Source: a virus
Reading direction: 5' to 3' (one strand)
Length of the DNA: 64,000 nt
Virus record (IMG/VR): IMGVR_UViG_3300035698_017305
Coordinates: 68,814-132,813 of that record
In this document: positions 4,943 to 64,000 of the stretch, in pieces
Position numbering within the stretch: position 1 is the first letter of the stretch
Layout of the letters: every line of letters begins with the position of its first letter
Translations under genes and position numbers: made by a program
The notes under the pieces: generated by a model
What the model was told of the DNA's origin: nothing
Seen by the model: the letters and a program-made list of their open reading frames with translations, nothing else
Database searches by the model: none

Positions 4943-5176
4943 ATGATTTCCACCGACGCTTTTTTACAAGAGACTGACCGAATCAATGGTCACACTAAGA
5001 CAGCGGTAGGCATGCTACCAGCGTTGGGGCTAATGGGTATGGGCGGAGCCGGACTGTTTGGCACGATGAATGCCGTGGACAGTTACCGTATAGGTAGGGC
5101 CCGCAAAGAGATGCTTAGAGCCCAGCAACAGATGCAGAAGCAGCAACAAACGGCCCAGATGTATAGTGGGGTATAA
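4943..5176 (+). CDS. Small leader-family protein (AFLQETDRINGHTKTA) with a hydrophobic Gly-rich segment; candidate internal virion protein
   Basis: AAGGAG RBS at about 4930; shared leader motif; VGMLPALGLMGMGGAGLFG follows the KTA. Confidence 0.7.
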   Translation: MISTDAFLQETDRINGHTKTAVGMLPALGLMGMGGAGLFGTMNAVDSYRIGRARKEMLRAQQQMQKQQQTAQMYSGV

Positions 5177-5177
5177 C

Positions 5178-5384
5178 ATGAATGATTACTTTTTAGATGA
5201 GCATGATCGGATCAGAGGGATACCAAAGGAGGCCCAGGACATGGGTATGGGCAGTGTCGGCCCTAGCCCTCTAGCTTCCATAGCACGTCAACAAAATACT
5301 GGTGCGGCTAAGATGCCAGCTAAGGTAAAGCCGTTGGCACAAGGCACCCCCGGGGCTAACCTTCGTATGACCAAGTTGATGTAA
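5178..5384 (+). CDS. Small leader-family protein (YFLDEHDRIRGIPKEA); candidate internal virion protein
   Basis: Start moved from 5166 to ATG 5178 so that the leader aligns with its paralogues; basic, Ala/Gly/Met-rich remainder. Confidence 0.65.
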   Translation: MNDYFLDEHDRIRGIPKEAQDMGMGSVGPSPLASIARQQNTGAAKMPAKVKPLAQGTPGANLRMTKLM

Positions 5385-6158
5385 ATGACCCCAGCCACTT
5401 TTAATACTGCGGATGTAGACGCTTTCTTGGTTAAGATAGGAGCTAAGAAGGAGACGTCACAGGAACGTCAACAAGCAGACATTAAGGCGTGGGAAGAATG
5501 GAATGCCAGTGATAGAGACCCAGCTCTAGTGACCCCGTTGTTCAAAAGATTCCAGGGGTTCATCGAGAGTGAGGCAAGGAAGATGTCCAACGTTGAGATG
5601 CCTAAGAACGCTATCCGTTCTGAATTCAACAACATGTTTATGACTGCTATCAAGACCTACAAACCAGACAAGGGAGCTGCTCTAGGTACTTGGATAGGCA
5701 ACCAACTGCGAGGAGCTGGCCGGTATGTCCGGACTTACCAGAACCCTGGACGCATTGTTGAAGCTAGGCACAGACACATCACTGACTTCCAAGTAGCCCG
5801 TAGAGATTTAGAAGAACAGTACGGCAGGCCCGCCTCGGGTTTAGAACTGGCTGACAAGCTAAGCATACCCGTAAAGGAAGTGGAGAGACTGTCTAGGGAG
5901 CTGTCCCGTAAGAGCCTACCTATGAGTGGGTTTGAGGGTGAGATGTTCTCTAGGACACCCAGCAAAGAGGCTGAGAGTCTACGAATGATGATGCATGAAC
6001 TGCACGGAGAAGAGCAGGTAGTCATGGAGCATCTGTTGGGTGCTAACGGAAAAGAAAGGCTCGACCCCATAGCTATTGCTGGCAAAATGGGGGTGTCTCC
6101 TGCTAAGGTATATAGAATCAAGAAGAGACTGGTTGAAAAGGTCAGGGATTATATCTAA
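5385..6158 (+). CDS. Sigma70-family RNA polymerase sigma factor (regions 2-3-4, group 3-like)
   Basis: Region 2.3-like AIKTYKPDKGAALGTWI; region 3 helix PASGLELADKLSIP; region 4 HTH LDPIAIAGKMGVSPAKVYRIKKRL. Confidence 0.88.
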   Translation: MTPATFNTADVDAFLVKIGAKKETSQERQQADIKAWEEWNASDRDPALVTPLFKRFQGFIESEARKMSNVEMPKNAIRSEFNNMFMTAIKTYKPDKGAALGTWIGNQLRGAGRYVRTYQNPGRIVEARHRHITDFQVARRDLEEQYGRPASGLELADKLSIPVKEVERLSRELSRKSLPMSGFEGEMFSRTPSKEAESLRMMMHELHGEEQVVMEHLLGANGKERLDPIAIAGKMGVSPAKVYRIKKRLVEKVRDYI

Positions 6159-6352
6159 TGGCCACCAGTCTTAAAGAACAGCAGATAGATTCTCTGGTCA
6201 GTACGGCCAAAGAATACATAGCCAAAGAGAGGACTAGGTTGGAGGATGAAGCTATCTTTTTGAAGGCTATTAAGAAAGGCTCTGGGCAATTGGAGGAGAT
6301 CCTAGTTGATCTAGCCCAGATTGAAGTGAACCAATTTTTAGGAGAGTCCTAA
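6158..6352 (+). CDS. Hypothetical helical protein (64 aa)
   Basis: Coupled by TAATG junctions; coiled-coil-like composition. Confidence 0.6.
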   Translation: MATSLKEQQIDSLVSTAKEYIAKERTRLEDEAIFLKAIKKGSGQLEEILVDLAQIEVNQFLGES

Positions 6353-6690
6353 TGGAATCAACGTCCGTGTCTGACACAATTGAACTGACAGAAACAGAAG
6401 CCCTCAAGGTAGAGAACTACAACCTCAAGCGAGAGAGTCTAGGCACCCGCTTGAAAGACCTTCAAGCCAAGTACCAGAAGGATGTGAAGATGATCCAGGA
6501 AGCTGCTAGTCAAATAGCAACTGAAGAATCTGCCTTCATTGATGGTCTGAACGACAAGTACGGGGTTGAACTTCGACACTACAAACTGGAGGGGACCATG
6601 GCCGTGAAGGTTATGACTCCACCAATACAGGCGGCGGCAGCAAATGAAGCCAAAGATAATAAAGGTAACCCGGATCAAGCCGATCATTAG
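6352..6690 (+). CDS. Hypothetical coiled-coil protein (112 aa)
   Basis: AGGAG RBS and TAATG coupling. Confidence 0.65.
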   Translation: MESTSVSDTIELTETEALKVENYNLKRESLGTRLKDLQAKYQKDVKMIQEAASQIATEESAFIDGLNDKYGVELRHYKLEGTMAVKVMTPPIQAAAANEAKDNKGNPDQADH

Positions 6691-6722
6691 GCGGATAAGA
6701 GACTGGGGGAAAGCGCAAGGCA

Positions 6723-7679: not shown

Positions 7680-7688
7680 GAGAACTCA

Positions 7689-8147
7689 ATGAACACCTTC
7701 TTTGAAGAAACAGACGCCATCCGTAAAGAAGCCGGTGCCGGTAGACTTGCGGGTATGCTGGGTAACAAAGCTGTCCGTTATGGAGGCGGCGCTATGCTTG
7801 GGGCAGGAGCTCTAGCTGGAGCGGCTAAGGGCGGACATGAACTGGGACAGGATCGTTATACCCCAGAAGCATTACAGATGTCTATGGGTGACCAGAATAT
7901 GGGTACCTACGTGGCACCGAGCAAGACCGTTGACGAGTTCAAGGGCATCCTGGGAGAGCAGGGACCCGAAGCTGCTATGCAGTGGGCTCAGCAACAACCT
8001 AACTCTGGATACTTCGTGAATCCACAGCTAGTAGCTAGCGCCGTAGCCCAAGCCATTCAAGGCGGCGGTCAAGGGGGCGGAGGTGCCCCTAAGATGGCAT
8101 CATTCAGGGGGCAGGCAGTTCCATCCGTCCCTTTCTCTCGGAGATAG
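7689..8147 (+). CDS. Leader-family protein (TFFEETDAIRKEA), Gly/Ala-rich; candidate internal virion protein
   Basis: AGGAG RBS; shared leader; GGGAMLGAGALAGAAKGG segment. Confidence 0.75.
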   Translation: MNTFFEETDAIRKEAGAGRLAGMLGNKAVRYGGGAMLGAGALAGAAKGGHELGQDRYTPEALQMSMGDQNMGTYVAPSKTVDEFKGILGEQGPEAAMQWAQQQPNSGYFVNPQLVASAVAQAIQGGGQGGGGAPKMASFRGQAVPSVPFSRR

Positions 8148-8959
8148 ATGCTGTTGGCCTGACTAAGCAAGCTGGGCCATGGCTTCAAGGGCTTGGGCAG
8201 TTATCTGCTAAGGCCGAAGGTGCGTTTGGTGGAGCCCTTAAAAAGGGCTGGGGCCGCGTCTCTGGAGCTGTTAAAGGGGAGGTAAGTAACCTAAAGGGAG
8301 CTCCCGGTGCCGTTAAAGAATGGGCTGTTGGTGCAAATCCTTTAGGTAGCAGAGCCAAATCTGTACCTCAGGGCATGGGCAAAGGCTCCTTTAACATGAG
8401 TCCTCAAGTTCGCCAAGGGTATGATAAGTTCCAGAAACCTATGGGTAATATGGCACCGTCTGCTAAAGCCCCTGTAGGAAATATAAAGAACAACGTCGGT
8501 CAAATGCGTAGGTCCGGTTACAATGCTGCCGGTGGGGTAGAGGCCGGAGGTGGTGGTGGGCAAGGTGTTTACAGCAGGTTAGCCGCAAGCACAGGTCCTA
8601 GGCCATCAGGACAAAAGATGCAGGCAGCCAACACAGCCATACAAGACACTGCTCAGCATGAACAGATGAGTGCGGGTAGGAACTGGTTAAAGAAGACACT
8701 GGATGGAATCGGAGGCGGTAAGTTTGACGTCGATGGGTTGGTATCTGGAGCGAAGAAGTATGGCCCCGGAGTACTAGCTGGTCTAGGCGGGACAGCCGCA
8801 CTCGGTGCAGGGGTGTATGGTGCAGCCAAACACTTGGCACCAAAACTAGTCGGGCATGGTGTTAAGGGCTTTGTAAAACAGAACCCGTGGGTAATACCCG
8901 CCGCTGTAGGTGCCCCACTAGCCGCTGGTATGGCTGGCGGCGCTATGACGGGGAACTAA
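8123..8959 (+). CDS. Leader-family Gly/Ala-rich protein with two hydrophobic C-terminal segments; true start lies upstream of the annotated ATG 8375
   Basis: Frame is open from 8093 and encodes (I)RPFLSEIDAVGLTKQAG; there is no ATG/GTG/TTG before the motif, so it needs an ATC start at 8123 or a frameshift. Confidence 0.6.
   Translation: MRPFLSEIDAVGLTKQAGPWLQGLGQLSAKAEGAFGGALKKGWGRVSGAVKGEVSNLKGAPGAVKEWAVGANPLGSRAKSVPQGMGKGSFNMSPQVRQGYDKFQKPMGNMAPSAKAPVGNIKNNVGQMRRSGYNAAGGVEAGGGGGQGVYSRLAASTGPRPSGQKMQAANTAIQDTAQHEQMSAGRNWLKKTLDGIGGGKFDVDGLVSGAKKYGPGVLAGLGGTAALGAGVYGAAKHLAPKLVGHGVKGFVKQNPWVIPAAVGAPLAAGMAGGAMTGN
8129..8135 (+). other. Candidate -1 ribosomal frameshift heptamer C_CCT_TTC
   Basis: X_XXY_YYZ pattern in the 0 frame of ORF 7689, three codons before its stop; the -1 frame is open to 8959. 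Confidence 0.4.
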
Positions 8960-11130: not shown

Positions 11131-11495
11131 TGGCGGACACTCCTGGCACAAGTTTAGAGGTGCGGATAGCGATAGGCAACGCCATAGCCTTGCTGCGTGC
11201 ACTGGATGCCAATGAGTTCATAGCCAGTACGGGCATGGCCGGTAGGTCAGGAGCGGGCAACCCAATCACTCCAGTGTCTTTAGACGACCTGTTGGAGCAG
11301 GCCATCAGTTCCATAGAGGGTGAGAGATCATTCTTCGTGACAGAATGGAAAGCGGCAGAAGAGGTGACGGCCCCATCTAAACTGGGTAGGCTGGATGAAC
11401 TTGAAGCTATGCTAACTAAGGTGTCGCAGGCAGCTAAGACCCTGGATACTGAGAGTGGCAGCTACTTACACGACCGTAACCTGGATTCATTGTAA
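11130..11495 (+). CDS. Hypothetical protein (121 aa)
   Basis: TAATG coupling on both sides. Confidence 0.65.
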   Translation: MADTPGTSLEVRIAIGNAIALLRALDANEFIASTGMAGRSGAGNPITPVSLDDLLEQAISSIEGERSFFVTEWKAAEEVTAPSKLGRLDELEAMLTKVSQAAKTLDTESGSYLHDRNLDSL

Positions 11496-12148: not shown

Positions 12149-12157
12149 GGTGGGTTA

Positions 12158-18119: not shown

Positions 18120-18135
18120 GGACACAGGATAAACA

Positions 18136-40206: not shown

Positions 40207-41014
40207 GTATTGTCCTCACTGCCAAGTAGGAGAGTCGGCGTTTGGCCAGTTCTTTCTCTCCGTTGGTGGTGCCCTCCGCTAGGATTAGTGCGGTAGGGCC
40301 GTTAGATGACCCTCCCGCCATGATTAGGCTTGGGTGCACGTTCATAACACCGCAAACCGTTTTAGCGGATACAGGAGCTTCTAGCAGCAACTCCTTACCC
40401 CGCAGTTTTTCGATGTCAAGATCCTCCTCCGGTTCATGCATTCGAACCGGGAATATCAGACCAAATACATATGACCCTGTGACGTAACACCCTCTCTTAC
40501 TAGGGTTCTTACCGGGCCCTAGAACTTTAGCGTCTAAGCTGTGAGCCAGCTTTAGGTAACCTGGGTTAACCGCGATAAACCGTTGTGGATTCAGTGGGAA
40601 CAAGTACACGGTTTCATCCCCAGGACGTATAGACCGCATATACTTCTCAGAGTAGTACATGTCCAGTAGGTTCTTGCCTCTTATGGTGGGACCTTCGTGA
40701 TGGCTATCGAACAACCATGTCAGGAAGGAGTTCGAAGCCACGTTCTCAGGAGCAGGTACATCCCCCACTACGTGTTCTTGCTTTACTTTCTTAGAGTACA
40801 AAGCTTCCCAGCTAATGCCTTTACCCGTGTCTTCATACAACGTCGATAGCTTGGCAAAGTTCTGTCCTAGTACCGGATGATCTTTACCATCGTCAGACAC
40901 TATGACAAAGTGGCCATTAGTAAGGGCTACCCGACCCCCACTGTAAAACAGTTCAGGAGCCGGGGTTAGCCCGGTAATGACTTTCTGGAAGCTAGGAGTT
41001 CCTACTTGCTCCAT
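40151..41014 (-). CDS. Hypothetical protein with possible sliding-clamp-like motifs
   Basis: VALTNGHFVIV, AVNPGYLKLAHSL and FGLIFPVRM resemble DnaN motifs; lies between SSB and polymerase. Confidence 0.35.
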   Translation of the reverse strand: MEQVGTPSFQKVITGLTPAPELFYSGGRVALTNGHFVIVSDDGKDHPVLGQNFAKLSTLYEDTGKGISWEALYSKKVKQEHVVGDVPAPENVASNSFLTWLFDSHHEGPTIRGKNLLDMYYSEKYMRSIRPGDETVYLFPLNPQRFIAVNPGYLKLAHSLDAKVLGPGKNPSKRGCYVTGSYVFGLIFPVRMHEPEEDLDIEKLRGKELLLEAPVSAKTVCGVMNVHPSLIMAGGSSNGPTALILAEGTTNGEKELAKRRLSYLAVRTIHGSSNSSRRPRGVVRGDG

Positions 41015-50620: not shown

Positions 50621-51546
50621 TGCCAGAACCACAACAGATCCAGGAACTTCTCCAGGAGATTGAGGGAGGGGACATTCTACATGCCCCTTCGGAAGAAACC
50701 ATCATAGACCTGGAGACAGCTAAGGGTGCACCCATAACGGTCAAGAATCTATTTGACCATCATGATGCACATCCTATAGCTTTGTACATTCTGACCAGCA
50801 TTAAGTTTGGGGCAGACTGGGTAAACTGGCCTGCTAAGGTAGTGTTCTCTGAGATACAGCGTGTGTTTAGGCGTACTGTGTCACGGAATAACCGGGAAAA
50901 GCTCAATGCTATTAGAGTGTTACACTCCACTAAGGACTTCTGGCAAGAGTGGGAAGTCTTCTCTGCCATCACTCAAGCACTGAACAATAACATCGTTAGC
51001 TTTAATGTGCTTACCCGCCCCACCATAGCTCAGATGATGAATGCAGTGGAGCAAGCAGGAAGCATCAAAAAGACGGAGTACGCCTCTGAGGTAGTAGACT
51101 TCATAGCTGCCGTATTTATTGACGAGCCTGTATTCTATGCCCCTGAACCCCTAGACTTCGTACAAAGAAGGATTGTGGAAGCGGTGGCTAAGGTAAAATG
51201 CGGTGATTGTGGTGCTAAGTTTGAACCTCACGGTATAGTTGAGGGCAGGTGCCCTATGTGTACCGGTGCTTTCAGGGATGAGAAGCCACTAAACTTTAAA
51301 CCTGATAAAGACGCACCAGACAATGTGGGACGCAACCTAACATTGGAGATGCCTTACCCCGTAGAGACGATTAAGGACAAGTACGAAACGGTCAGTAAAC
51401 AGGCTTCAAATGAGGCGGTGCTAGCCCCAGACAAGATAGAGGACATTCAATCGGCTAAGCTGCTGATTGCCAGGGACTACGTTAATCTCAGACGCGCCCA
51501 GCTCAACAGGCAAGTGCGCCTGATCAGGGAAGCTCACATAGCATGA
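50620..51546 (+). CDS. Hypothetical head-region protein with a Zn ribbon
   Basis: CGDCG...CPMC; TAATG coupling. Confidence 0.6.
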   Translation: MPEPQQIQELLQEIEGGDILHAPSEETIIDLETAKGAPITVKNLFDHHDAHPIALYILTSIKFGADWVNWPAKVVFSEIQRVFRRTVSRNNREKLNAIRVLHSTKDFWQEWEVFSAITQALNNNIVSFNVLTRPTIAQMMNAVEQAGSIKKTEYASEVVDFIAAVFIDEPVFYAPEPLDFVQRRIVEAVAKVKCGDCGAKFEPHGIVEGRCPMCTGAFRDEKPLNFKPDKDAPDNVGRNLTLEMPYPVETIKDKYETVSKQASNEAVLAPDKIEDIQSAKLLIARDYVNLRRAQLNRQVRLIREAHIA

Positions 51547-52304
51547 ATGACACCGCCTCTTTTTTAGCAGAGCACGACTCCATAGCTAAGGAGGCCGGTG
51601 TGCTTACCTCTGGTATTAAGTTTATACCGAAGATAGTTAAGTATTTAGGCTTAACCGCTAAACAGACACTATCTACTTCCGGTAAGCTGCTTACATCCCC
51701 TAAGAAAACGGTGGGGGCAGGTTGGAAATCTATGAGCGGATCCCACCAGTACACCAAGAATTTAGAGGGGTTCGACTCTAGAATAGCTGAGATGGCTAGA
51801 GGGTCTGCCCGTAAGACTGAGGTTCTAAAGAAAAAGCAGTTCTTAGCTAAGTCTAAGCATATGAGCCAGAAGTCTAGGAGCCTTGGTGGTTCGTGGAATA
51901 AGGGGGGCTTTGATGGGTTAGCCAGTGAACTGTCCCGTAGGGGTTGGACTGGTAGCACCAAGAACACCAAGTTCATACCATGGGGTCAGAAATCATGGGT
52001 AGTGGGGTTTGCGCCTATGTCTGCCCAAACTGTAATGTCAGGGGATAAAGAGCTACCGAAGCACTTACGTAGAGGCCCACTTGAGAGGCTAGGGTCTGAA
52101 ATTGGGAGTACCGCAGGATTTGTTGCTGGCTTCCCACTCAGTATAGGTGGTAGTATCGGGGCATCAATGGCAGCGGGAAAAGGGGCAGGGTCTGTGGGTA
52201 AGCTGGTTGATGAAGCTTTCGGAATGGGTAAGAAGCCTATGGAATACATGTCTGGTCCAAGACCACCTGCGGTGCCCAGGCCCCCAACAACATATGGAAT
52301 ATAA
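51543..52304 (+). CDS. Leader-family protein (SFLAEHDSIAKEA), basic, with a C-terminal Gly-zipper helix; candidate internal virion protein
   Basis: Shared leader; IGSTAGFVAGFPLSIGGSIGASMAAG; directly upstream of the portal. Confidence 0.7.
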   Translation: MNDTASFLAEHDSIAKEAGVLTSGIKFIPKIVKYLGLTAKQTLSTSGKLLTSPKKTVGAGWKSMSGSHQYTKNLEGFDSRIAEMARGSARKTEVLKKKQFLAKSKHMSQKSRSLGGSWNKGGFDGLASELSRRGWTGSTKNTKFIPWGQKSWVVGFAPMSAQTVMSGDKELPKHLRRGPLERLGSEIGSTAGFVAGFPLSIGGSIGASMAAGKGAGSVGKLVDEAFGMGKKPMEYMSGPRPPAVPRPPTTYGI

Positions 52305-52307
52305 TTA

Positions 52308-54353
52308 ATGTCGTGGACTGTAGCACAAAACACAGGGAATGATAAATACCTCAGTAATATAGGTGCGTCCGGAGGGGGCCAACTAACACGTAAAGGTATG
52401 TACCCATCCCCATTCTTTGACATCGCCCAGACGTATCTGCCACATACCGTTAAGAGTATGTTCAAGTGGTGCAGGTACTACTACATGGTGAACCCGGTTA
52501 TCAACGCTTCTATCACTAAGCTGGCGTCGTACCCGGTTAGACCTCTCACATACAAAACAACAGATAAGCAGCTCAAGGAAATGTACCAGGAGCTGGCGGA
52601 AGTGCAGTTGAAGATCAGGTCATTCCTGGTGGATGTAGGGTTAGACTACTACACATATGGCAACGCGTTCATATCTGTAGAGTACCCATTCAAGAAGCAC
52701 TTGAAATGTAAGAAGTGCGGCAAGCTGTTCCCCATCCGGGAAGTGAAGTACAGGTTCCGTGGTATGAAGTACTACATGAACTGCCCGGACTGTAGTACCT
52801 ACGAGCAAGAATCTGACGTAGTAGATGTTAACGTGAAGTCTGTGAGAGACATCAAGTTGGTCCGCTGGAACCCAGAGGATATGAATGTTGACCACAACTA
52901 CGCCACTCTGCAAACTACATACTCATATAACATCCAGCAGTCCGTCAAAAATGACATTATGATGGGCAAAAAGAAGGTTATTGAGAATGTACCGCACTAC
53001 TACGTTGAAGCCGTCAGGAAGCAAAAGTCCATCGTGTTCAATGATAATGCGATCTACCACTTCCAACGGGGGATCATCAGCCAGAAGAATCGTGGATGGG
53101 GTATGCCAATCATGCTCCCTGTGCTCAAGAATGCGTTTTACCTCCAAATACTCCAAAAGGGGCAAGAGGCCATAGCGATGGAGCACATCGTTCCTATGAG
53201 AGCGTTGTTCCCACAGGCGGCTGATCCTTTGAGTTCCCCGGTAGCTAACGTTAACCTGTATGAGTGGCGGGAGAGAATGAACGAAGAGATCTCTAAGTGG
53301 AGGCAGGATGGTAACTACATACCTATCCTTCCGTTCCCTGTTGGGCACCAAATCATTGGGGGTACTGGCCGGGCACTGATGCTACACCAAGAGATAAAAC
53401 AGTGGCTGGAACAGATAGTCATCGGTATGTCTCTACCACTTGAATTCGTGTTTGGTGGTATGTCATACACAGGGTCTAATGTATCCATGCGGGTACTTGA
53501 GAATGACTTCATCAGATACATCGAAGATCTGCGGGGGGTACTCCGGTTCATATTCAAGAACATAGCCACCTACATGGGGTGGACTTATGTAAAGATAGAC
53601 TTCCAGCCCTTTAAGATGGCGGACGATCTACAGAGGTCAGCCTTTAAGCTCCAGATGTCACAAGCCGGAATGTTCCCGGAACGTTGGCTCATGGAGGACA
53701 TTGATGTTGACCCTGATGACGCTTACGAAGTAATGGCTCAAGAGTCTCAACGTAAGATGGATCAGCAGAAGAAACAGCAGATCGCTATGGCTGATGCTCA
53801 GGGCGAGGCCCAGGCGCGCATGATGCGTTACCAGACCAAAGCCCAGATGGAGCAGTTCCAGAATCAACAACGAGGACAGCCTGCGTCTACATCTCAGGAG
53901 TTGGGACCACCCAATGCGGGTACTACTGGGGCTGACCCCCCAGCTAGCTTGCCAGCAAATGGGCCACCGCCGCCACAGCAGCAACAACAGCAACAGCAGA
54001 ATTCTGCCATGGGGCTACCGGCTGAGACTAAGCTGTACCCAGAAAATGCTCAGAAGCAGCCAGAGAGTGGAGTTCCAAAAGGTGTGCAGTCTCCACTAGC
54101 AGGTACCAATATGGGGTCGGGTGGAGGATTCGATGTTATGTACGTAGCTAAAAAAGCAGCTCATGCTTTAATGAATATGGACCCGACTAGTCGGTACTCC
54201 AAGCTGAATGAGCTGCGTTTTTCTAACCCTCAGATACACGGACTGGTGACCCAGTTCATGCAAGAGGGGCAAGGAAGCCAAGTAGACACTATGGATATAG
54301 CTATGCCTAATCAGAAGCCTCCTCGTAGGCCCTCTAACAAAGCTGTAGGTTAA
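52308..54353 (+). CDS. Portal protein with a Zn-ribbon insertion and a Gln/Pro-rich C-terminal tail
   Basis: NPVINASITKLASYPV; DYYTYGNAFI; IYHF...GWGMPIMLPVL...GQEAI; IVIGMSLPLEFV are portal-type patterns. Confidence 0.85.
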   Translation: MSWTVAQNTGNDKYLSNIGASGGGQLTRKGMYPSPFFDIAQTYLPHTVKSMFKWCRYYYMVNPVINASITKLASYPVRPLTYKTTDKQLKEMYQELAEVQLKIRSFLVDVGLDYYTYGNAFISVEYPFKKHLKCKKCGKLFPIREVKYRFRGMKYYMNCPDCSTYEQESDVVDVNVKSVRDIKLVRWNPEDMNVDHNYATLQTTYSYNIQQSVKNDIMMGKKKVIENVPHYYVEAVRKQKSIVFNDNAIYHFQRGIISQKNRGWGMPIMLPVLKNAFYLQILQKGQEAIAMEHIVPMRALFPQAADPLSSPVANVNLYEWRERMNEEISKWRQDGNYIPILPFPVGHQIIGGTGRALMLHQEIKQWLEQIVIGMSLPLEFVFGGMSYTGSNVSMRVLENDFIRYIEDLRGVLRFIFKNIATYMGWTYVKIDFQPFKMADDLQRSAFKLQMSQAGMFPERWLMEDIDVDPDDAYEVMAQESQRKMDQQKKQQIAMADAQGEAQARMMRYQTKAQMEQFQNQQRGQPASTSQELGPPNAGTTGADPPASLPANGPPPPQQQQQQQQNSAMGLPAETKLYPENAQKQPESGVPKGVQSPLAGTNMGSGGGFDVMYVAKKAAHALMNMDPTSRYSKLNELRFSNPQIHGLVTQFMQEGQGSQVDTMDIAMPNQKPPRRPSNKAVG

Positions 54354-55064: not shown

Positions 55065-55101
55065 TTAGACAGCCAAATACGATTCCAGAGGGATAATAAA
55101 C

Positions 55102-58100
55102 ATGCCCGAATTTAGCCCTGACAGGCAATTTGAGGCCCTCAAAGAAGGAGTCGTGGATGTCATCAAGTCCCAGCTCCCTATTGAGGGTCGCCGTCGTAAA
55201 CTTCAAGTTAACGATGTATATGTCGATGACAGACTAGACTCCGATGACCTCATATCCCAGACTGAGGCCAAAGTTGGGGGGAAAAACTGGGTAGTACCAA
55301 TCAGAGCCAAACTATCTTTGATCGACAAAGAGACTGGCAAGACGGTTGAGAAGAACGATGTAATAGTCGCCCACCTTCCTAAACCGACCAATAGACTTTC
55401 GTATATTCTCCGGGGTAAGGAGTACCAGCCCGTCACACAGTTACGCCTGAAGTCTGGTGTATATGTGAGGCGCACAGATGTTGGTGACTTGGAAGCCATG
55501 TTCAACCTTGAAAAAGGTAGAGGCTTCAATGTTATGTTTGACCCCAAGAGCCGTAAGTTCACCATGAAGTATGGTAACTCCAACATATCCTTGTACCCTA
55601 TCTTGAAAGCTCTGGGTGTGAGTGATGGGGATATCACCAAAGCTTGGGGGGATGAAGTACTAACGTCCAACCAGAAGAGCAAGCCCCTCACTGAACTCAA
55701 CCGGTTTTACAAGACTGAGACAGGTAAGCTGGCCAAGACAGAAGAGGAAGCTGCCTACCTAGTGCAGGATGTACTTGGAGCAACCAAACTACGATCTGAC
55801 ACTACAGAAGTTACCTTGGGTAAGTCCTTTGACAAAGTAAGCGGGGAGGCGCTGATAGCTGCTTCTCATAAGCTTCTGAAGGTAGCCCGGGATGCAGCGG
55901 ACACTGATGATAGAGACGCTCTTATGTTCAAAAAGGCGTTGGGGGTGGAGGATACTCTTCCTGCTGAAGTTAGATCTGCGGCATGGCGTACTAAGGGTAA
56001 GCTGAGTAACAACATTGACAACCCGAATAGTGATATCCGTAAGATCATAGGTTCCGACACATTCGATAAGACCATCACGCAGTTCTTTACACAAGGGTCG
56101 CTGTCAGAAGCCATTGAGCACGTTAACCCGCTACAGTTACTGGCGGGAGCAGCCCAGACCACTATCATGGGTAAAGGCGGTATCACTAAAGAGGATCAGA
56201 TCCGTGAACCTCAGCAGATGATCAACCCGTCCCAGTTCAGTTTCCTAGATCCGGTCCACACACCTGAATCATCCAGGACCGGCATCACTCTGTACATGCC
56301 CCTAGGCACCCATAAGGATGGGGAGGACCTGAAGAGTAGGCTGTACAATATCAAGACCGGTAAGTTTGAGGACGTGAAGGCTACTGATGCCGCGACCAAG
56401 ACAATTGTTTACGCTGACCAAGTAGAATGGAAGAAGGATGGTAAGCCCAAGGCCAAGTTCAGGCAGGTGAAGTCGAGAGCCCCTGGGGAAGAGATCAAAA
56501 TGACGGCATTCAAGGATGCTGACTACGTGGTTCCCCACGCTACGGGGCTCTTTGACTTCGTTACCAACTTGGTGCCTTTCCTGGAGTCTAACCAGGGAAA
56601 TAGAGCGTCCATGTCTACTAGACAATATGAGCAAGCTATCTCTTTGAAGGATAGGGAGGTACCTCTAGTACAAGTGGCCGCCCCGGGCGGTAAGACATTC
56701 GAAGACATAGTAGGTAAGTTTACCGCTAGGCTCTCTCCTGTAGCGGGCAAGGTAATGTCTGTAGAGAAGAATAACATCAAGGTCAAGGATGGTAAAGGTA
56801 AGGTACACATGGTATCTCTTTACTCCCATTACCCTTTGAACGATAAGTATTCCCAGCTCAACTCTGAGCCAGTGGTTAAGGCTGGGGATGTTGTGAAGAA
56901 AGGGCAGTTGGTAGCGGACTCTAACTTCACTAAGGACGGCACGTTCGCGCTAGGTGTAAACCTGGAGGCGGCGTATGTCCCTTATAAGTCCTTCAACCAT
57001 GATGATGGCATTGTTATATCCGACGCAGCATCTAAGAAACTTACCTCTGAGCATTTGTATCAGAGCAAGTACGTAGCTGACACTGAAGCTCAAGTACAGC
57101 TAGCCGAGCTGACCAAGAAGAAGCTAGGTACGAAGAAGGACCTATACCAGAATTACTTCCCCAACAGGGTCACCCCAGAGCAAGGTGGGAAACTAGACTC
57201 TGATGGAGTTATCCGTGAAGGTGAGGCTGTTGACGCAGGTGACTTACTAGTTGCCGGACTTAAGCGTAGACCTATGCGGGAAGAAGACATCATGTTGGCC
57301 AGACTGGATAAGTCTTTGGTCAGACCATTTGATGATGCTTCCGTTCGTTGGGATGAGACGTCCCAAGGTAAGGTTGTACGGGTTGTAAAAGACCGGGTTG
57401 GCGACAAGGTTAGGGGTGCCAGGGTATATGTCAGTACTGCGGAAGCCGCTAAAGTAGGTGACAAGCTAGTAGGTAGGCATGCTAACAAGGGGGTTATCAC
57501 CCTAATTCTACCTGATGCTGAGATGCCTAAAAAGAAAGACGGGACCCCCGTTGAGATCCTGATCAACGCCACAGGTATCCCTTCCCGTATGAACGTGGGG
57601 CAGGTACTGGAAACCGCTGCGTCTAAGATAGCTGAGAAAAAAGGGAAGATCTATATTACGGACAACTTCGGAGACCCAGATAGGGATAATATCCGTAGGG
57701 TTCAAGCTGATCTTAAGGCGGCAGGGGTGACAGATACAGAGCCACTATGGGATGGAAAAGATGATCCCGATAAAGATCCATCACTAGGGACGCCGTTGGC
57801 TGGTAAGCAGTACATTCTCAAGCTTCAACAAATGGTTGAGCACAAGATGGCCTCTAGATCCGGTGGGCCGGGCAGACCATATGATTACAATGACCAACCG
57901 GCTAGTGGAACCGGGGTGCAGGCCATGGATGCGCTGGCTGTGTACAGCCTCTTGTCTCATGGGGCTAAGTCAAACCTAAGAGAAATGATGACATACAAGA
58001 GCTCCCGGAACGATGATTTCTGGGACGCTCTACAACTAGGAAAACCTCTACCCATGCCCGAGACCCCGTTTACTTATGATAAGTTTGGGTCGCTACTAAA

Positions 58101-61100
58101 GGCATTGGGTATTGATATGAGGAAGAGCGGTAACGAGATATCATTCATACCCCTAACTGATAAAGAGACTCGTAAGATCTCTAATGGTGCATTGAAAGAC
58201 CCTGGCCGTATGGTGTTGGGTAAGAACCTACAGCCTGAGAAGGGTGGGCTGTTTGACCCTAAGGTCACTGGAGGCTTGGAGGGTAAGCACTGGAGTCATA
58301 TCGAACTTACGGAGAAGGTTCCAAACCCTGTGTTTGAGGGGGCTATCCGAAGAACTCTCGGCCTTACTGAAAAGGAATTCAGCGGGATAATAAACCACGA
58401 GACTACGGTCGGTGGGGAGACAGGGTTTAAGGCTCTTGAGAAGATGCTGGACTCTCTGGATGTTGACTCTGAGATTGGGTCCATTGAGAGTAAGATGGCG
58501 GATTTATCCGGGGCTAACCTAGCTAAGGCCAACATGAGGCTGAAGCAATTGAAAGCCCTTAGTACATTGAAGATGAAGCCTTCTGATGCGTACATGATGG
58601 GGACGGTCCCAGTACTGCCGCCTAACATGAGGCCGATGGTTATCACTCCTGATGGAAGGCTATCTGGGGATGACGCCAATGACCTGTACAAGTCAGTAGG
58701 TCTTACCAACATGCAGTTGGCCAAGGTAGATAAAGGGTTCCCGGATGAGTTCAAGGACCCACTAAGGGTTGAGCTGTACGATCAATTGAAAGCTCTAACT
58801 ATAACTGGAGTGGTAGACCCGACTAAGCGTAAGAAGCGCGGTATCATGGAGTTTGTGGCGGGGCAGAACCCTAAGAACAGTTTCTTCCAGGCTAAGATGA
58901 TCCGTAAGGCTCAGGATATGAGCGCCAGGGCCATCATTAAGCCTGACCCTAACCAGAGTATTGATGAGATAGGTCTGCCCAGGACGGCGGCGAGAGAAAT
59001 GTACAAGCCGTTCATAGTCAGGGAGCTGTCATTGTCTGGGTATACCCCACGAGAAGCTCAGGTTATGGTAGAGGAGGCCCATCCTAATGCTGATAAGGTT
59101 CTTGAGCAGATCGTGCAAGACAGACCCGTGATTATAAAGCGTGACCCTGCGTTGCACAGATACAGCATCATGGCTTTTAAGCCTAGGCTGCTGGACGGTA
59201 AAACTATTGATATCCACCCGTTGGTAACGAATGGGTTCAACGCTGACTTCGATGGGGACGCCATGGCAGCATATGTCCCTGTGACCCAAGAGGCCATTGA
59301 TGAAGCCAGACTGATGTTCCCAAGTAACCACTTGTTCAGTGCTAGTAGTGGGAAACTCACTACGATGCCACAGCAGGAAGCGGTACTGGGGCTGTACGAA
59401 CTATCCAAGTGGAAACCGGGCGACAATAAGGAATTTAAGTCCTTCGCCGAGGCGGTTAAAGCGGCTGATAAGGGAGGGGTAACCCTGAATGAGGTTATCC
59501 GGGTTAAGGGCAAGCCTACCACTGTGGGCCGGGTAATCCTATATAATTCACTACCCTCAGATATACGTACTGATGACATGCTGTACAAGCAGAGTTTCCG
59601 TATGGATAAAAAGACTACTGGTAAGTTCCTGGAGGGGGTGGCTAAGAAACACCCTAAGCAGTTCGACTTGGTAGCCAATGAGATCTACAGAAGAGGGGCT
59701 GACTTTGCTTACCGTATGGGGGCATCTGTTAGCTTGAACGACTTTGCTGTGGACAAGGGTCTAAGAGCCGCAGTATTCTCGGAAGCGGACACTAAGATCA
59801 ACGCATTAAGACGCAGGGGAGCCAGTCAAAAACGCATAAACAAGGAGTCATTAGAAGCCTATGGTGATGTGACTGATAAAATGGAGACCGCCCTTCATAA
59901 CAGATATGAAGGAGAATCAAACGGACTGTACTCAATGGTTAGTTCTGGTGCCAAGGGTAGCATGACTAACTTCAGGCAAATTACTGGCTCCCCTGTTCTA
60001 GTTCAAGGGTTCATGGGTAAACCTGTTCCTATTCCTATTAGAAAGTCCTACTCGGAAGGGCTAGACCTAGCTGACTACTTCACTAGTATGCACGGAGCCC
60101 GTAAGGGTACCACTGACAGGGTTAAAGGAACGTCAAGGCCCGGTGCCATGACCAAGGAACTCATCAACGCTAACTTGGACCAAGTGGTTAACAAGGATGA
60201 TTGTGGTACCACCCGTGGTATTGGTATGGATATAGAAAGTCGAGAGGTATTGGATAGGTTCTTAGCATCTGATGTCAAGATTGGGTCCAGGGTTATCCCA
60301 AAAGATTCTTTGGTAACCCCAGAGCTATTAGCTAAGCTCAAGAACGCCAAGGTCACCAGGGTCATAGTACGTAGTCCGCTTAAGTGCCAAGAAGATGAGG
60401 GTATATGTGCGAAATGCTACGGGTTAACCGAGAGGGGACACACCCCCGAGATGGGTACCAACCTGGGCGTTATCGCGGCTCAATCACTAGGTGAACCAGC
60501 TACGCAGTTGGTTATGAGAACGTTCCATACAGGATCTGCTGTTACCAGTGGGCGTAAGCTAACTGACCAGTTGACCCGTGTTTACGATGAGCTGTTGCGT
60601 ATGCCCGCGAAACTGCAAGGGTCCGCTGTACTAGCCTCCAGAGAAGGTACGGTACAGAAGATAATCCCCGATAAGGTAGCGGGTGGGTTCAACATCACTG
60701 TGGCTGGTACCAGTCACTACGTTCCAGGGGACAGACCGGTTGATAAGAAGTCCCTGTTAGGTAAGAAGGTTAAGAGGGGTGATCCACTCTCTGATGGTCC
60801 TATTAACCCTCATGAGCTGCTGAAACTGACGGATATGCCGACTGTCCGCAATTACTTGACGGATGAAGTACACAATATCTACGACAGGGAAGCGGGTACT
60901 AAGAGAAAGAACGTAGAGGTCATAATCAAGTCTTTGACAGACACTGGGGTTGTGGATGATCCAGGGGACTCAGCATCCGTTATACGGGGCGACAACATGA
61001 GACTGACCACTGCGGCCCAATTCAATGCCAAAGCCTCTGAGGATGGCCTGAAGGAGATCAAAATCAAGCCTGTACTGAAAGGGCTTAACCAGATACCGAC

Positions 61101-61278
61101 ATTTGCTAACGAGGATGTTCTGTCTAGGCTTAACTTCCAGCATCTCAAAGACACGCTGTTACAGTCAGCAGCTTTGAACTGGAAGTCTAGGATCCATGGA
61201 CCGAACCCAATTCCTGGTCTTGCTTATGGTGCCGAATTCGGAAAACCTCCGAAGGGTAGCCCCAAGACTTGGTACTAA
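55102..61278 (+). CDS. rpoBC: Multisubunit-type DNA-directed RNA polymerase with beta and beta' fused in one 2058-aa chain
   Basis: Beta motifs: LDPVHTPES, GDKLVGRHANKGVI, GIPSRMNVGQ, LREMMTYKS. Beta' motifs: VLPPNMRP, RDPALHR, catalytic NADFDGD (59239-59259), SGAKGS, HGARKG, CQEDEGICAKCYG, AQSLGEPATQLVMRTFH. Confidence 0.97.
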   Translation: MPEFSPDRQFEALKEGVVDVIKSQLPIEGRRRKLQVNDVYVDDRLDSDDLISQTEAKVGGKNWVVPIRAKLSLIDKETGKTVEKNDVIVAHLPKPTNRLSYILRGKEYQPVTQLRLKSGVYVRRTDVGDLEAMFNLEKGRGFNVMFDPKSRKFTMKYGNSNISLYPILKALGVSDGDITKAWGDEVLTSNQKSKPLTELNRFYKTETGKLAKTEEEAAYLVQDVLGATKLRSDTTEVTLGKSFDKVSGEALIAASHKLLKVARDAADTDDRDALMFKKALGVEDTLPAEVRSAAWRTKGKLSNNIDNPNSDIRKIIGSDTFDKTITQFFTQGSLSEAIEHVNPLQLLAGAAQTTIMGKGGITKEDQIREPQQMINPSQFSFLDPVHTPESSRTGITLYMPLGTHKDGEDLKSRLYNIKTGKFEDVKATDAATKTIVYADQVEWKKDGKPKAKFRQVKSRAPGEEIKMTAFKDADYVVPHATGLFDFVTNLVPFLESNQGNRASMSTRQYEQAISLKDREVPLVQVAAPGGKTFEDIVGKFTARLSPVAGKVMSVEKNNIKVKDGKGKVHMVSLYSHYPLNDKYSQLNSEPVVKAGDVVKKGQLVADSNFTKDGTFALGVNLEAAYVPYKSFNHDDGIVISDAASKKLTSEHLYQSKYVADTEAQVQLAELTKKKLGTKKDLYQNYFPNRVTPEQGGKLDSDGVIREGEAVDAGDLLVAGLKRRPMREEDIMLARLDKSLVRPFDDASVRWDETSQGKVVRVVKDRVGDKVRGARVYVSTAEAAKVGDKLVGRHANKGVITLILPDAEMPKKKDGTPVEILINATGIPSRMNVGQVLETAASKIAEKKGKIYITDNFGDPDRDNIRRVQADLKAAGVTDTEPLWDGKDDPDKDPSLGTPLAGKQYILKLQQMVEHKMASRSGGPGRPYDYNDQPASGTGVQAMDALAVYSLLSHGAKSNLREMMTYKSSRNDDFWDALQLGKPLPMPETPFTYDKFGSLLKALGIDMRKSGNEISFIPLTDKETRKISNGALKDPGRMVLGKNLQPEKGGLFDPKVTGGLEGKHWSHIELTEKVPNPVFEGAIRRTLGLTEKEFSGIINHETTVGGETGFKALEKMLDSLDVDSEIGSIESKMADLSGANLAKANMRLKQLKALSTLKMKPSDAYMMGTVPVLPPNMRPMVITPDGRLSGDDANDLYKSVGLTNMQLAKVDKGFPDEFKDPLRVELYDQLKALTITGVVDPTKRKKRGIMEFVAGQNPKNSFFQAKMIRKAQDMSARAIIKPDPNQSIDEIGLPRTAAREMYKPFIVRELSLSGYTPREAQVMVEEAHPNADKVLEQIVQDRPVIIKRDPALHRYSIMAFKPRLLDGKTIDIHPLVTNGFNADFDGDAMAAYVPVTQEAIDEARLMFPSNHLFSASSGKLTTMPQQEAVLGLYELSKWKPGDNKEFKSFAEAVKAADKGGVTLNEVIRVKGKPTTVGRVILYNSLPSDIRTDDMLYKQSFRMDKKTTGKFLEGVAKKHPKQFDLVANEIYRRGADFAYRMGASVSLNDFAVDKGLRAAVFSEADTKINALRRRGASQKRINKESLEAYGDVTDKMETALHNRYEGESNGLYSMVSSGAKGSMTNFRQITGSPVLVQGFMGKPVPIPIRKSYSEGLDLADYFTSMHGARKGTTDRVKGTSRPGAMTKELINANLDQVVNKDDCGTTRGIGMDIESREVLDRFLASDVKIGSRVIPKDSLVTPELLAKLKNAKVTRVIVRSPLKCQEDEGICAKCYGLTERGHTPEMGTNLGVIAAQSLGEPATQLVMRTFHTGSAVTSGRKLTDQLTRVYDELLRMPAKLQGSAVLASREGTVQKIIPDKVAGGFNITVAGTSHYVPGDRPVDKKSLLGKKVKRGDPLSDGPINPHELLKLTDMPTVRNYLTDEVHNIYDREAGTKRKNVEVIIKSLTDTGVVDDPGDSASVIRGDNMRLTTAAQFNAKASEDGLKEIKIKPVLKGLNQIPTFANEDVLSRLNFQHLKDTLLQSAALNWKSRIHGPNPIPGLAYGAEFGKPPKGSPKTWY

Positions 61279-61288
61279 GGTATACACT

Positions 61289-61486
61289 ATGTACAAAGAG
61301 TCGTTCTTAAGAGAGTGGGATGATATTAGGAAGGTGGCCGCTATGGGGGTGCAATCTATACCCCAGATACAAGCGCCTAAGGCCATCAAGATGGACGCAT
61401 CAATGAAGGCACCTACAGTACCCAATGCAGGACTTAGGGCCCCTAAGCCTCCACACGTTGGGGCTTCACAAACGCTAGGTACATAA
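61289..61486 (+). CDS. Small leader-family protein (SFLREWDDIRKVA); candidate internal virion protein
   Basis: Start moved from 61196 to ATG 61289, just after the RNAP stop; Pro/Ala/Lys-rich remainder. Confidence 0.65.
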   Translation: MYKESFLREWDDIRKVAAMGVQSIPQIQAPKAIKMDASMKAPTVPNAGLRAPKPPHVGASQTLGT

Positions 61487-61487
61487 C

Positions 61488-62681
61488 TTGGGTGATGTAA
61501 AAATAGAGTCAGGGAGAGTCACCAATGTCAACACACTGGATTTCACAGTTGATGTGATGGTGGCCGGTTCCCGTAGTCCCTTCTCGGACCTACCGATTGG
61601 GTCTTCATATCTCCACTATGCTCAGGGGGAGGGTGTCACGATTATGCCCGAGGTAGGGGCGGTATGCTGGGTGTGCGTGCCCAGTGACAACTCTGATGCC
61701 TTCGTAATATCCTTTACCAACCCTCAGGATGAGAGTGGAAGTTACAGGGCTAACCGCCGAGATATGAATCCAGGCGACATGTCTATGACCACCAGGGATG
61801 GAAATGGTATCATTTTGAGACGAGGTGGGGTTGTGGAAATACAGTCTACCCCCATGTCTAAGCGGATCCATGTACCCATTCTTAACTTTATTAGAGATTT
61901 CTGTGAGAATTACGGCCTGCACACTCCCGGAGGTGATATCACTTGGACTATAAATCGGAAGAATAAGCATACGACGTATGCCACTGGTATAAAAGAGCTG
62001 GGTACAGACGCCAAGGCGGTGTTCTTTGTAGACTCAGGGTATGTGGATGGTTCTGTAATATTCCAGGCTTACGGTCTACCTGCGGCTGGTACTAAGCTTC
62101 ATAGTGAGCTGTCACCACTGCCCACCCGTCTCAATACTGGGGTGGATTTGGCGACTACTATGGGCGGTTCCGCTGCCACAGCCGCTATCGAAGCAGCATC
62201 AGTAGCCCAAGGATGGTCATTTTGTTTAAACGTCGATAAATCTGGGGCGGTGATTTTTAGCGCAGTAGATGCTAAACTAGCATTTGCAAACGCCTTCTCT
62301 CTAATGGCGGGGGCGTCGATAAATCTAAGGACCACAGCTTTCAATCTGGAAGCGGTAACTGGAGCACTGAACTTGGTACAGACGTTGGGCATAACTGCAC
62401 CCGGAGGGATCTCCTTAGGGTCAGCCACTGAAGAATCGGGTGCTGATGAGCCGGTGGTGTGTGGTAACCTTTTACTAGAGTCCCTTAACACTCTGATTAC
62501 CATAGTCATGGGACATATACATGGGGAGAAGGGAGTTCCTATACCCCCTGCCACCCCACCGTTGGTGATGAATATAGACTCTCAATTGGCCCTATTAGGG
62601 TTAAGGCTAGCTCAATTTAACCCGCAGGCCATGGGTCCTAACGTCCTATCTGATTTGGTTACAGTAAAGGCGAAGGAGTAA
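61488..62681 (+). CDS. Baseplate central spike (P2 gpV / T4 gp5-like), TTG start
   Basis: OB-fold pattern GRVTNVN...TVDV...MPEVGAVCWV; beta-helix-like middle region; C-terminal GHIHG metal-binding motif. Confidence 0.8.
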   Translation: MGDVKIESGRVTNVNTLDFTVDVMVAGSRSPFSDLPIGSSYLHYAQGEGVTIMPEVGAVCWVCVPSDNSDAFVISFTNPQDESGSYRANRRDMNPGDMSMTTRDGNGIILRRGGVVEIQSTPMSKRIHVPILNFIRDFCENYGLHTPGGDITWTINRKNKHTTYATGIKELGTDAKAVFFVDSGYVDGSVIFQAYGLPAAGTKLHSELSPLPTRLNTGVDLATTMGGSAATAAIEAASVAQGWSFCLNVDKSGAVIFSAVDAKLAFANAFSLMAGASINLRTTAFNLEAVTGALNLVQTLGITAPGGISLGSATEESGADEPVVCGNLLLESLNTLITIVMGHIHGEKGVPIPPATPPLVMNIDSQLALLGLRLAQFNPQAMGPNVLSDLVTVKAKE

Positions 62682-62684
62682 GAA

Positions 62685-62933
62685 ATGGCGGCCTGTTTAG
62701 AAATAGCCATACCCCAACTGGAGTTAATGAAAACTGCATTCCTGGCACTCCCTATGGATGCTAGGTTGCCTATAAAAAACGTAACACTGACAGTCAGTGC
62801 TGGCATACCTCCTACCTACTCAGTAGAGGTAGAATGGGGGTTCCCGGAAATACCGGGGATACCTGAGCTAGCCTTAGGTCTGTGTGATCCTTCTGTAGCA
62901 ATACCCTCTGTACCTGATGTACCGATACCATAA
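62685..62933 (+). CDS. Small Pro-rich hypothetical protein after the spike
   Basis: AAGGAG RBS; 82 aa; PEIPGIPE...IPSVPDVPIP. Confidence 0.55.
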   Translation: MAACLEIAIPQLELMKTAFLALPMDARLPIKNVTLTVSAGIPPTYSVEVEWGFPEIPGIPELALGLCDPSVAIPSVPDVPIP

Positions 62934-62947
62934 GGGAGTCAACTGTA

Positions 62948-64000
62948 ATGTCCAATCAACCGCTATTCATGGATGAGTCTGAAGAACTTTTCAAAGAGGC
63001 TTCTTTCATCCATATCATGAACTCCAATCCAGACACTTGGACTACTGAGGTCATGCAACAGGCGTATAAGCATCTCCCCTATATTGCGGAGTACTTAATC
63101 AGCGTAAAGCTAGACCGTCAAAACCCAGAAGTGGGGTCTGCACTCGGTCACTTACAGATAAGGCCGAAGGGAGTGGGTATACCCGATCCAAAGAAACCTA
63201 CGGCTAAGGTACCAATTATTATTGATGAGGCAAAGCTACACCCGTTTGACGTCCTGATAACAAGCAAGGGCAAGACTATGCCTTTGACCGAGGACAGGCT
63301 ACGGGAAGATCTGTTTAACCCATCAACCTTTGACTTGGTAAAGTCGCCTCCCCCTCCAGTACGAATGGAAGACTTGATGAGTCCTCCAGGCGGTGGCGGC
63401 GGAGATGATGGCGGCTCTATTAAATCGTCAGCATTCAAAGACATATTTGAACTAGCCCCCCGTGAAAAGCTGGCTAGAATGGTAATGGTTATGTCGGACT
63501 CCCCGGCGTTTATGTCCAAGGCCGCATCGGATAAAAGCGTTATGGACACAGCACTGCGTATCCATCATCTGTCTACCAAGGTAGCTGCGACCACAGGGGA
63601 CATTGTGAAGCAGGCGGCTGCTAATATTGAACCTACCGTTGTCCAGATAATACCCCGTAAAGACGGGCAGTATTTGATCAAGACAGCTAACCCAGGGGCT
63701 TTTGCTCCTCAGTCCAACGTGGTACCACAAGGTAAGATGCCCCCTGGAGTTGGCGGGGGAACCCAAGCTTTACCTGTCGGAGGTATGCCGGGTGAAGAGG
63801 GGGCACCACAGGTTCCACAGCCTCCCCAGCCGAATGTACTTCCTGGATCCGGTATTCCCGCTCCAGGTCCGGCGGGGCCCATTGACACGTCAAGTATGGA
63901 GCAGCCTATGCAACCTGCACAGGAGCAAGGTCCGGGTCAACCGATGCCAGCCCCTGAAGAACAGAGGATGCCACCAGCTCCTATTGAACAGTTTGGGCAA
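62948..64000 (+). CDS. Large head-region protein running off the window end (not in the ORF track); leader-like N-terminus, K-x-A motifs, Pro/Gly/Gln-rich region
   Basis: GGGAG RBS; open frame from ATG 62948 (MSNQPLFMDESEELFKEASF...) with no stop to 64000; motifs KEA, KLA, KAA, KVA, KQA, KTA. Confidence 0.8.
   Translation, partial: MSNQPLFMDESEELFKEASFIHIMNSNPDTWTTEVMQQAYKHLPYIAEYLISVKLDRQNPEVGSALGHLQIRPKGVGIPDPKKPTAKVPIIIDEAKLHPFDVLITSKGKTMPLTEDRLREDLFNPSTFDLVKSPPPPVRMEDLMSPPGGGGGDDGGSIKSSAFKDIFELAPREKLARMVMVMSDSPAFMSKAASDKSVMDTALRIHHLSTKVAATTGDIVKQAAANIEPTVVQIIPRKDGQYLIKTANPGAFAPQSNVVPQGKMPPGVGGGTQALPVGGMPGEEGAPQVPQPPQPNVLPGSGIPAPGPAGPIDTSSMEQPMQPAQEQGPGQPMPAPEEQRMPPAPIEQFGQ

Follow-up and report, generated by a model that had tools for sequence, protein, structure and literature searches.

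A short N-terminal peptide ending in Lys-x-Ala on unrelated proteins of an RNA polymerase-encoding phage: a candidate capsid-targeting propeptide

Introduction

In bacteriophage T4 a 10-residue capsid-targeting sequence (CTS), which ends in a cleavage motif, loads diverse internal proteins into the head, and the scaffold is cut many times (PMC9026906). The CTS is found on IPI, IPII, IPIII and Alt and is removed by the prohead protease gp21 (Mullaney and Black 1996; review PMC9026906). The T4 capsid protein loses an N-terminal piece as well, and a site lies close to the N-terminus of gp21 itself (PMC9026906). Here a short peptide, referred to as the tag, is described that is shared by the N-termini of unrelated proteins encoded by the virus of IMG/VR record IMGVR_UViG_3300035698_017305, a large uncultured phage from a salt-lake metagenome, and the possibility that it serves as a propeptide of the T4 type is considered. 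The stretch of DNA analysed, called the window, comprises 64,000 nucleotides (nt; positions 68,814 to 132,813 of the record) and represents the final 64 kb of a single phage contig of 132,813 bp, the completeness of which is put at ~71% by CheckV. Coordinates are those of the window unless stated otherwise.

Two other groups of described phages are relevant for comparison. The proteases gp175 of phiKZ and gp245 of SPN3US are diverged gp21-like enzymes that process many head and ejection proteins (PMC10052503, PMC5694885). The multisubunit-RNA-polymerase-encoding Caudovirales (mReC) have a phage beta/beta' RNA polymerase (RNAP) together with a capsid protein that matches PF07068 (PMC7481178). 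In Salmonella phage Arash, a distant cultured relative of the phage described here, the virion proteins include RNAP subunits and a sigma factor, with the beta subunit displaying the most spectra (PMC10585845).

A shared N-terminal peptide in the window

The tag is an acidic amphipathic peptide that is present on eight unrelated proteins and ends 15-21 residues from the protein start. It has hydrophobic residues at positions 1, 5, 8 and 12 and terminates in the pattern hydrophobic-x-K-x-(A/S)-small. The residue that precedes the K is R, A, F, T, P or I, and an invariant Glu beside the site is absent.

An earlier note, made from the sequence alone, had reported seven open reading frames (ORFs) that share this leader and are followed by a different cargo each time. 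All seven peptides were confirmed by translation of the + strand. The motif of that note, used as a regular expression on the six-frame translation of the whole 132.8-kb contig, gives seven matches, all on the + strand, at the starts of open frames and within the window; the - strand and the first 68 kb have none. The mean number of matches is 0.015 in residue shuffles and 0.01 in codon shuffles, with a maximum of 1, and the leader is therefore far more frequent than a shuffled background would give. The cargos are indeed different, as no pair shows a BLASTP E < 0.1 when the tags are stripped. Several have Gly/Ala-rich or glycine-zipper-like hydrophobic stretches. Conserved residues of the tag are encoded by varying synonymous codons; thus selection is on the peptide and not on the DNA.

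A position close to the start of the ORF, also claimed in the note, is borne out for six tags (4943, 5178, 7689, 51543, 61289 and 62948), which are preceded by a canonical ATG and a Shine-Dalgarno-like stretch. The copy at ~8129 is real as a peptide and is at the start of an open frame, but the ORF that carries it, ORF 8120, displays no ATG, GTG or TTG from the upstream in-frame stop (~8090) to the motif. It is in the -1 frame relative to ORF 7689-8147, overlaps the end of that ORF and lies just past a GGGGG run at ~8105. Possibilities are a start at the ATC at position 8120, a -1 frameshift from ORF 7689 that would fuse two tagged proteins into one, or an assembly error of a single base within the GGGGG run. 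No canonical -1 slippery heptamer was found by eye.

A small profile made from the seven copies recovered an eighth, weaker copy that ends in K-L-S. K-E-A alone is not enriched across this contig, which is expected, as it is a tripeptide and the head module is off the contig.

The tag among related phages

Related phages were found with the portal protein as anchor, and the comparison set consists of 80 portal-anchored loci. The databases contain 1429 homologs of the portal with an E of 0.001 or lower, and a relative of it is encoded by 433 IMG/VR contigs. Complete relatives are ~200 kb in length and have terminal repeats. Distant relatives in culture are Arash and the Vibrio phages D69, D181 and D148; the proteins that Arash has in common with the clade are the portal, RNAP, sigma factor, terminase, protease and capsid protein.

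A profile built from the window copies and those of relatives matches 68 N-termini with 6 bits or more when the 80 loci and this genome are searched together, compared with one match in reversed decoys. All 68 are on the portal strand, and 53 of them start no more than 12 residues after a Met. The consensus of the clade is F-(L/A/F)-D-E-L-E-K-I-(A/S). The window uses a longer form, F-x-D-E-L-x-x-I-x-K-E-A-G, in which K-x-A comes one helical turn later.

At 30-45% identity, the orthologs of three tagged genes retain the tag, namely those of the pre-portal gene (51543), gene 62948 and the gene behind the hub-like gene. The pre-portal family is conserved among relatives with its tag included, and an N-terminal F-L-D...K-x-A/G is kept in 33 orthologs of 62948. 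Further tagged genes occur in one genome but are missing at the same place in another; relative G006, for example, lacks a counterpart of 61289 at the corresponding position. Whole genomes of relatives have 5-9 copies of the tag, some of which are distant from the structural genes.

A scan of IMG/VR with back-translated F-L-x-E-x-D-x-I-x-K-E-A was also made. Its 14 matches were all internal chance matches in unrelated proteins and were rejected.

The cultured relatives have small proteins that open directly with M-(D/E/F)-K-x-A and continue with a Gly-zipper or a very basic sequence (examples in Table 1). These small proteins recall the internal proteins of T4.

A gp21-like protease in the relatives

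The contig is collinear with the complete relative G006 until ~76 kb of G006, where G006 next has terminase, protease and scaffold-like genes and a capsid gene. Thus the head module of this phage is in the missing part of its genome. The earlier note had expected a prohead protease gene outside the window: a gp21-like protease is found in the relatives, but none is present on this contig.

The protease of G006 (87390-88970) matches the PHROG family "head maturation protease" with E 9e-6. Its AlphaFold model has a mean predicted local distance difference test score (pLDDT) of 63, with the core, residues 40-230, better modelled. Model residues 50-233 align with T4 gp21 (5jbl) at Z 7.8, with a root-mean-square deviation of 3.3 A over 135 aligned residues; the next fold is at Z 4.8, and the human cytomegalovirus (HCMV) protease is at Z 3.2. 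Foldseek alone finds gp21 only at E 0.2. His109/His110 and Ser166 are invariant among the protease homologs and would lie roughly where the catalytic His and Ser of gp21 align, as judged from the aligned ranges and not residue by residue. All complete relatives examined encode a gp21-like protease, as do Arash and D69 (42% identity between the proteases of G006 and Arash). Sequence searches of the PDB with profiles of the portal, the spike-like protein and the protease gave nothing useful.

Some protease homologs (P0124, P0152) are 900-919 amino acids (aa) long and have Hint / LAGLIDADG Pfam domains, which indicates putative inteins. The terminase ORF of relative G004 (G004:C1 ~8.7-11.6 kb) aligns to the G006 terminase as two blocks ~340 residues apart, which suggests an intein there too. 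In G008 an open frame of 1331 aa (G008:C1:188802-192797, - strand) has the protease homolog as its N-terminal part; it is either a fusion with the downstream head gene or a gene-calling artefact.

K-x-A in head modules

Statistics on head modules cover G006, Arash, G008 and G009; G001 was excluded because gene calling in its GC-rich genome was unreliable. In G006 the tetrapeptide E-K-I-A is observed 10 times, with 0.85 expected, and is confined to head-module proteins and N-terminal tags. Within the head module of G006 there are 6.2 E-K-x-A sites per 1000 aa, compared with 0.47 in the rest of the genome, a 13-fold difference (p 2e-13), while reversed and permuted controls are flat. The enrichment of E-K-x-A in the head module is 5-fold in G008 and 4-fold in G009. 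In an unbiased scan of all 400 a-x-b patterns, K-x-A takes first place for three head modules, those of G006, Arash and G008 (p 9e-12 to 6e-15), and second place for that of G009. Neither L-x-E nor I-x-E, the motifs of T4, shows enrichment there (0.9-1.5 times background). With a correction for local composition, K-x-A is at 1.4-2.1 times expectation, and A-x-K, KA and AK are at 0.6-1.0.

The motif (E/D)-K-x-(A/G/S) is present in 115 of the 120 protease homologs, at a median position of residue 28. Of the eight K-x-A sites in the D69 protease, one is at residue 27, and a scaffold-like acidic protein of the same phage, 269 aa in length, has ten hydrophobic-x-K-x-A-(S/A) sites. In the capsid proteins of D69 and Arash, K-E-A-G is found just before the conserved N-arm, and G006 has K-I-A there. 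Internal sites in the scaffold conserve only ~5 residues; the N-terminal copies also conserve F1, L5, I8 and the D-E pair at positions 3-4.

Interpretation and alternatives

The shared N-terminus is, with moderate confidence, a capsid-targeting propeptide of the T4 type that has been adapted to a different protease specificity. That the tags of the window are propeptides cut at K-x-A by a gp21-like protease is put forward with the same moderate confidence. Conservation ends after a small residue, and this suggests Ala, Gly or Ser as the candidate P1. F1, D/E3-4, L5 and I8 are conserved in the tags but not in the internal scaffold sites, and this additional conservation would point to a second role of the N-terminus as a docking helix. 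By analogy with T4 we infer that this helix may have a "zip-code" targeting role and may be portable.

In such a scheme the helix would dock the tagged proteins onto the scaffolding core or the inner shell while the prohead assembles. The prohead protease would then cut at or just past K-x-A, with the small residue probably as P1, and the cut would release the cargo and degrade the scaffold. The released cargo would remain in the head and be delivered together with the DNA. The cargo set would consist of small Gly-rich, membrane-active-looking proteins, the pre-portal protein, the large protein encoded behind the spike gene, a SWIM/PARP-like protein and possibly the sigma factor.

As to the claims of the earlier note, which had proposed a head-loading tag with a protease site, the tag is found across the clade, and the relatives display both a gp21-like protease and an enrichment of K-x-A; packaging and targeting are argued by analogy with T4. 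K-x-A as the candidate protease site gains from its enrichment, which exceeds that of every other gapped dipeptide in three of four head modules of relatives, and from its presence near the N-termini of the protease and capsid proteins, while cleavage itself is presumed. A specificity that differs from that of T4 agrees with the enrichment of K-x-A and not of L/I-x-E in these head modules.

Several points weigh against this interpretation. The genes for prohead protease, scaffold and capsid are absent from this ~71%-complete contig, and therefore every argument on the protease rests on relatives with ~30-46% portal identity. Several tagged genes are among hub, spike and baseplate genes and not among head genes. 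K-x-A is short and holds little information, and a Lys/Ala-rich composition accounts for part, not all, of its enrichment. The site in the capsid protein is in a well-conserved stretch and could be structural, and the tag profile does not score the capsid protein. The published list of Arash virion proteins (PMC10585845) is without usable N-terminal detail. In addition, the spacing of hydrophobic residues is equally compatible with a docking helix that is not cleaved.

Such an uncleaved helix should also be considered. The amphipathic N-terminus would bind one partner shared by all tagged proteins (for example the portal, the scaffold, the tail lumen or a chaperone) and stay on the mature protein, K and A being mere positions in the helix. 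In its favour, the hydrophobic residues 1, 5, 8 and 12 are on one helical face, and hub, spike and portal genes adjoin tagged genes. However, the accumulation of helix-less K-x-A sites in scaffold-like proteins (one of 269 aa has 10) and the site at protease residue 28 are left unexplained, and this possibility appears rather improbable. A removable propeptide without an addressing function is unlikely too, if a little less so. Here K-x-A would be a protease site, entry into the head would depend on other contacts, and the piece would keep the protein inactive or soluble until maturation. The evidence on the K-x-A site does bear on cleavage and not on targeting, and some Arash and D69 proteins begin with M-(E/D)-K-x-A without a helix. 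Nevertheless, the N-terminal copies conserve much beyond the site, at F1, D-E 3-4, L5 and I8, compared with the ~5 residues of scaffold sites, and tagged genes are found outside of structural modules as well.

The location of several tagged genes may instead suggest a signal for loading the lumen of the tail or baseplate and not the head, similar to the N-terminal packaging domains of extracellular contractile injection system cargo. Genes 4943 and 5178 are behind the hub-like gene. The spike-like gene lies between 61289 and 62948, and its ortholog in G006 shows weak gpV/baseplate matches. Gly-zipper-like hydrophobic segments occur in cargos. A signal of this type is nonetheless improbable to a marked degree, as head proteins (protease, capsid protein and scaffold-like proteins) have the same ending, a gp21-type protease acts inside the prohead, and the tagged pre-portal family is within the portal block. 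Double-glycine leaders have the pattern E-L-x-x-I-x-G-G, and the tag bears a superficial likeness to it. An export leader, or one of the type found on ribosomally synthesized and post-translationally modified peptides (RiPPs), double-glycine-like and served by a C39 peptidase transporter, is nevertheless highly improbable. PF03412 (Peptidase_C39) is absent from this contig and from the complete relatives G006, G008 and G009, with 7 control genomes positive, and the tags end in K-x-A/S with no Gly-Gly. Shared N-terminal ancestry without function is placed at the same low level; the cargos are unrelated and orthologs keep the tag over deep divergence, which argues against a leader of this kind as well.

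If the capsid-targeting propeptide is the correct reading, a sequence rule follows, whereby an N-terminal F-x-(D/E)-E-x-x-x-I helix and then K-x-A predict proteins that are packed in the head and probably injected. The rule would apply to a large, almost unstudied phage clade whose virions contain a phage-encoded RNA polymerase and sigma factor. Head proteases of the gp21 / assemblin fold would then not be limited to Glu, as in phages, or Ala-Ser, as in herpesviruses. The cultured phages Arash and D69 bring this reading within reach of ordinary virion proteomics.

A wider proposal is offered tentatively, as something that may well prove incorrect. In the clade as a whole (at least 433 IMG/VR contigs together with Arash and D69; 130-220 kb) the head protease, a member of the gp21 family, would have switched from Glu to Lys-x-Ala, and one portable amphipathic tag would load a changing capsid cargo that includes membrane-active ejection proteins, enzyme-like effectors and a sigma factor, the last possibly carrying the untagged RNAP. 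In that case the proteins that these phages inject would be predictable from sequence, and foreign proteins could be packaged with the tag.

Tagged genes and their surroundings

The features are listed in Table 1. The order 557-aa gene, 308-aa gene, pre-portal gene, portal, RNAP, spike-like gene and large gene is kept in the 80 portal loci.

Table 1. Coordinates of tagged ORFs, neighbouring genes and M-(D/E/F)-K-x-A starters.
Feature	Coordinates	Strand	Tag	Remarks
Tagged ORF, 77 aa	4943..5176	+	residues 1-21 (nt 4943-5005), ending K-T-A	hydrophobic Gly-rich segment in cargo
Tagged ORF, 68 aa	5178..5384	+	residues 1-19 (nt 5178-5234), ending K-E-A	
Sigma-like factor	5385..6158	+		Pfam Sigma70_r3 E 1e-4 (below cut-off); ortholog of Arash gp10 sigma, a virion protein (PMC10585845)
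Tagged ORF, 152 aa	7689..8147	+	residues 1-15 (nt 7689-7733), ending K-E-A-G	Gly/Ala-rich cargo
Tagged ORF, ~279 aa	8120..8959	+	nt 8120-8173, ending K-Q-A-G	glycine-zipper-like hydrophobic segment at C-terminus
Tagged ORF, 253 aa	51543..52304	+	residues 1-18 (nt 51543-51596), ending K-E-A-G	directly 5' of portal gene
Portal protein	52308..54353	+		weak PHROG portal matches; 1429 homologs; 31% identity to annotated Arash portal
Fused beta-beta' RNA polymerase	55102..61278	+		Pfam Rpb2/Rpb1 domains; adjoins portal as in relatives
Tagged ORF, 65 aa	61289..61486	+	residues 1-17 (nt 61289-61339), ending K-V-A-A	
Tagged ORF, truncated at contig end	62948..64000	+	residues 1-18 (nt 62948-63001), ending K-E-A-S	
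Eighth tagged ORF, 145 aa	contig 60759-61196 (8 kb upstream of window)		ending K-L-S	SWIM-like CxC...CxH motif
M-(D/E/F)-K-x-A starters	L153:26874-27053, 35757-36065, 40328-40783			cultured relatives
M-(D/E/F)-K-x-A starter	Arash 58195-58971	-		cultured relative

Gene 4943 is behind a 1043-aa hub-like gene, and the gene at the same position in G006 and G001 is tagged too. Gene 62948 was extended by 269 nt with a 1947-nt Joint Genome Institute (JGI) contig (L152) that shows 0 mismatches over the 1678-nt overlap; the stop is still not reached, and the protein is now at least 440 aa. A search of the ESM Atlas with a 942-aa ortholog of 62948 gave no usable match.

The sigma-like ORF has a short element, F-L-V-K-I-G-A, at residues 13-20 (window 5421-5444). 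Among the N-termini compared, from five genomes including this one, hydrophobic-x-K-x-small, with (G/S/A)-A as its end, is kept at residues 13-20 of the sigma-like orthologs, and the element may be a minimal, weak form of the tag. The tag is not consistently present in the RNAP N-termini compared. A fused beta-beta' RNAP is found beside the portal throughout the clade, with gp206/gp216 as the counterparts in Arash (L147). This phage probably injects its own transcription machinery.

The ortholog of the eighth tagged ORF in G006 (L108:16377-17153) is likewise tagged. It shows a sub-threshold match to the PARP catalytic domain (E 0.03), and the next tagged gene of G006 shows a sub-threshold match to protein kinases (E 0.008). 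These tagged proteins may be enzyme cargos. A Pfam search with 20 tagged cargos from relatives revealed nothing beyond these PARP-like and kinase-like matches.

A megablast of 20 kb against GenBank phages gave no match, nor did a search of IMG/VR with the RNAP as single-protein query. With respect to the features of mReC, the RNAP is present and fused, and searches of this contig and of 5 complete relatives gave no match to PF07068, the T4 capsid family.

Comparison with known systems

A limited literature search turned up neither this tag nor a head-protease site of the K-x-A type. The similarity to the CTS of T4 is in the plan: a short N-terminal peptide is common to unrelated proteins and ends in a motif that is repeated in the scaffold and near the N-terminus of the protease. 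As in T4, the protease of the relatives has the gp21 fold, and cargo genes come and go among relatives. The site itself is different, putatively hydrophobic-x-K-x-(A/G/S) here and L/I-x-Glu in T4. The tag is 15-21 residues in length and acidic-amphipathic, compared with 10 residues in T4. Nor is the phage T4-like: a PF07068 capsid match is absent, and a fused RNAP is beside the portal.

Phages phiKZ and SPN3US are similar in their gp21-like protease, in propeptides that are mostly N-terminal and in virions that also contain RNA polymerase. Their proteases, however, cut after Glu in a short motif (small-x-E in phiKZ), and their propeptides are mostly 111-254 residues long with no common sequence, whereas one short consensus tag is reused here.

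The maturational and release sites of herpesvirus assemblin have an Ala-Ser scissile bond. Assemblin is a fold relative of gp21, as shown by the alignment with the HCMV protease above, and has a small P1 (Ala), as K-x-A-small suggests for the present site. It belongs, however, to a eukaryotic virus and has another upstream consensus. The principle of a capsid-targeting propeptide has been known in T4 for decades, and what would be new here is the specificity and the clade.

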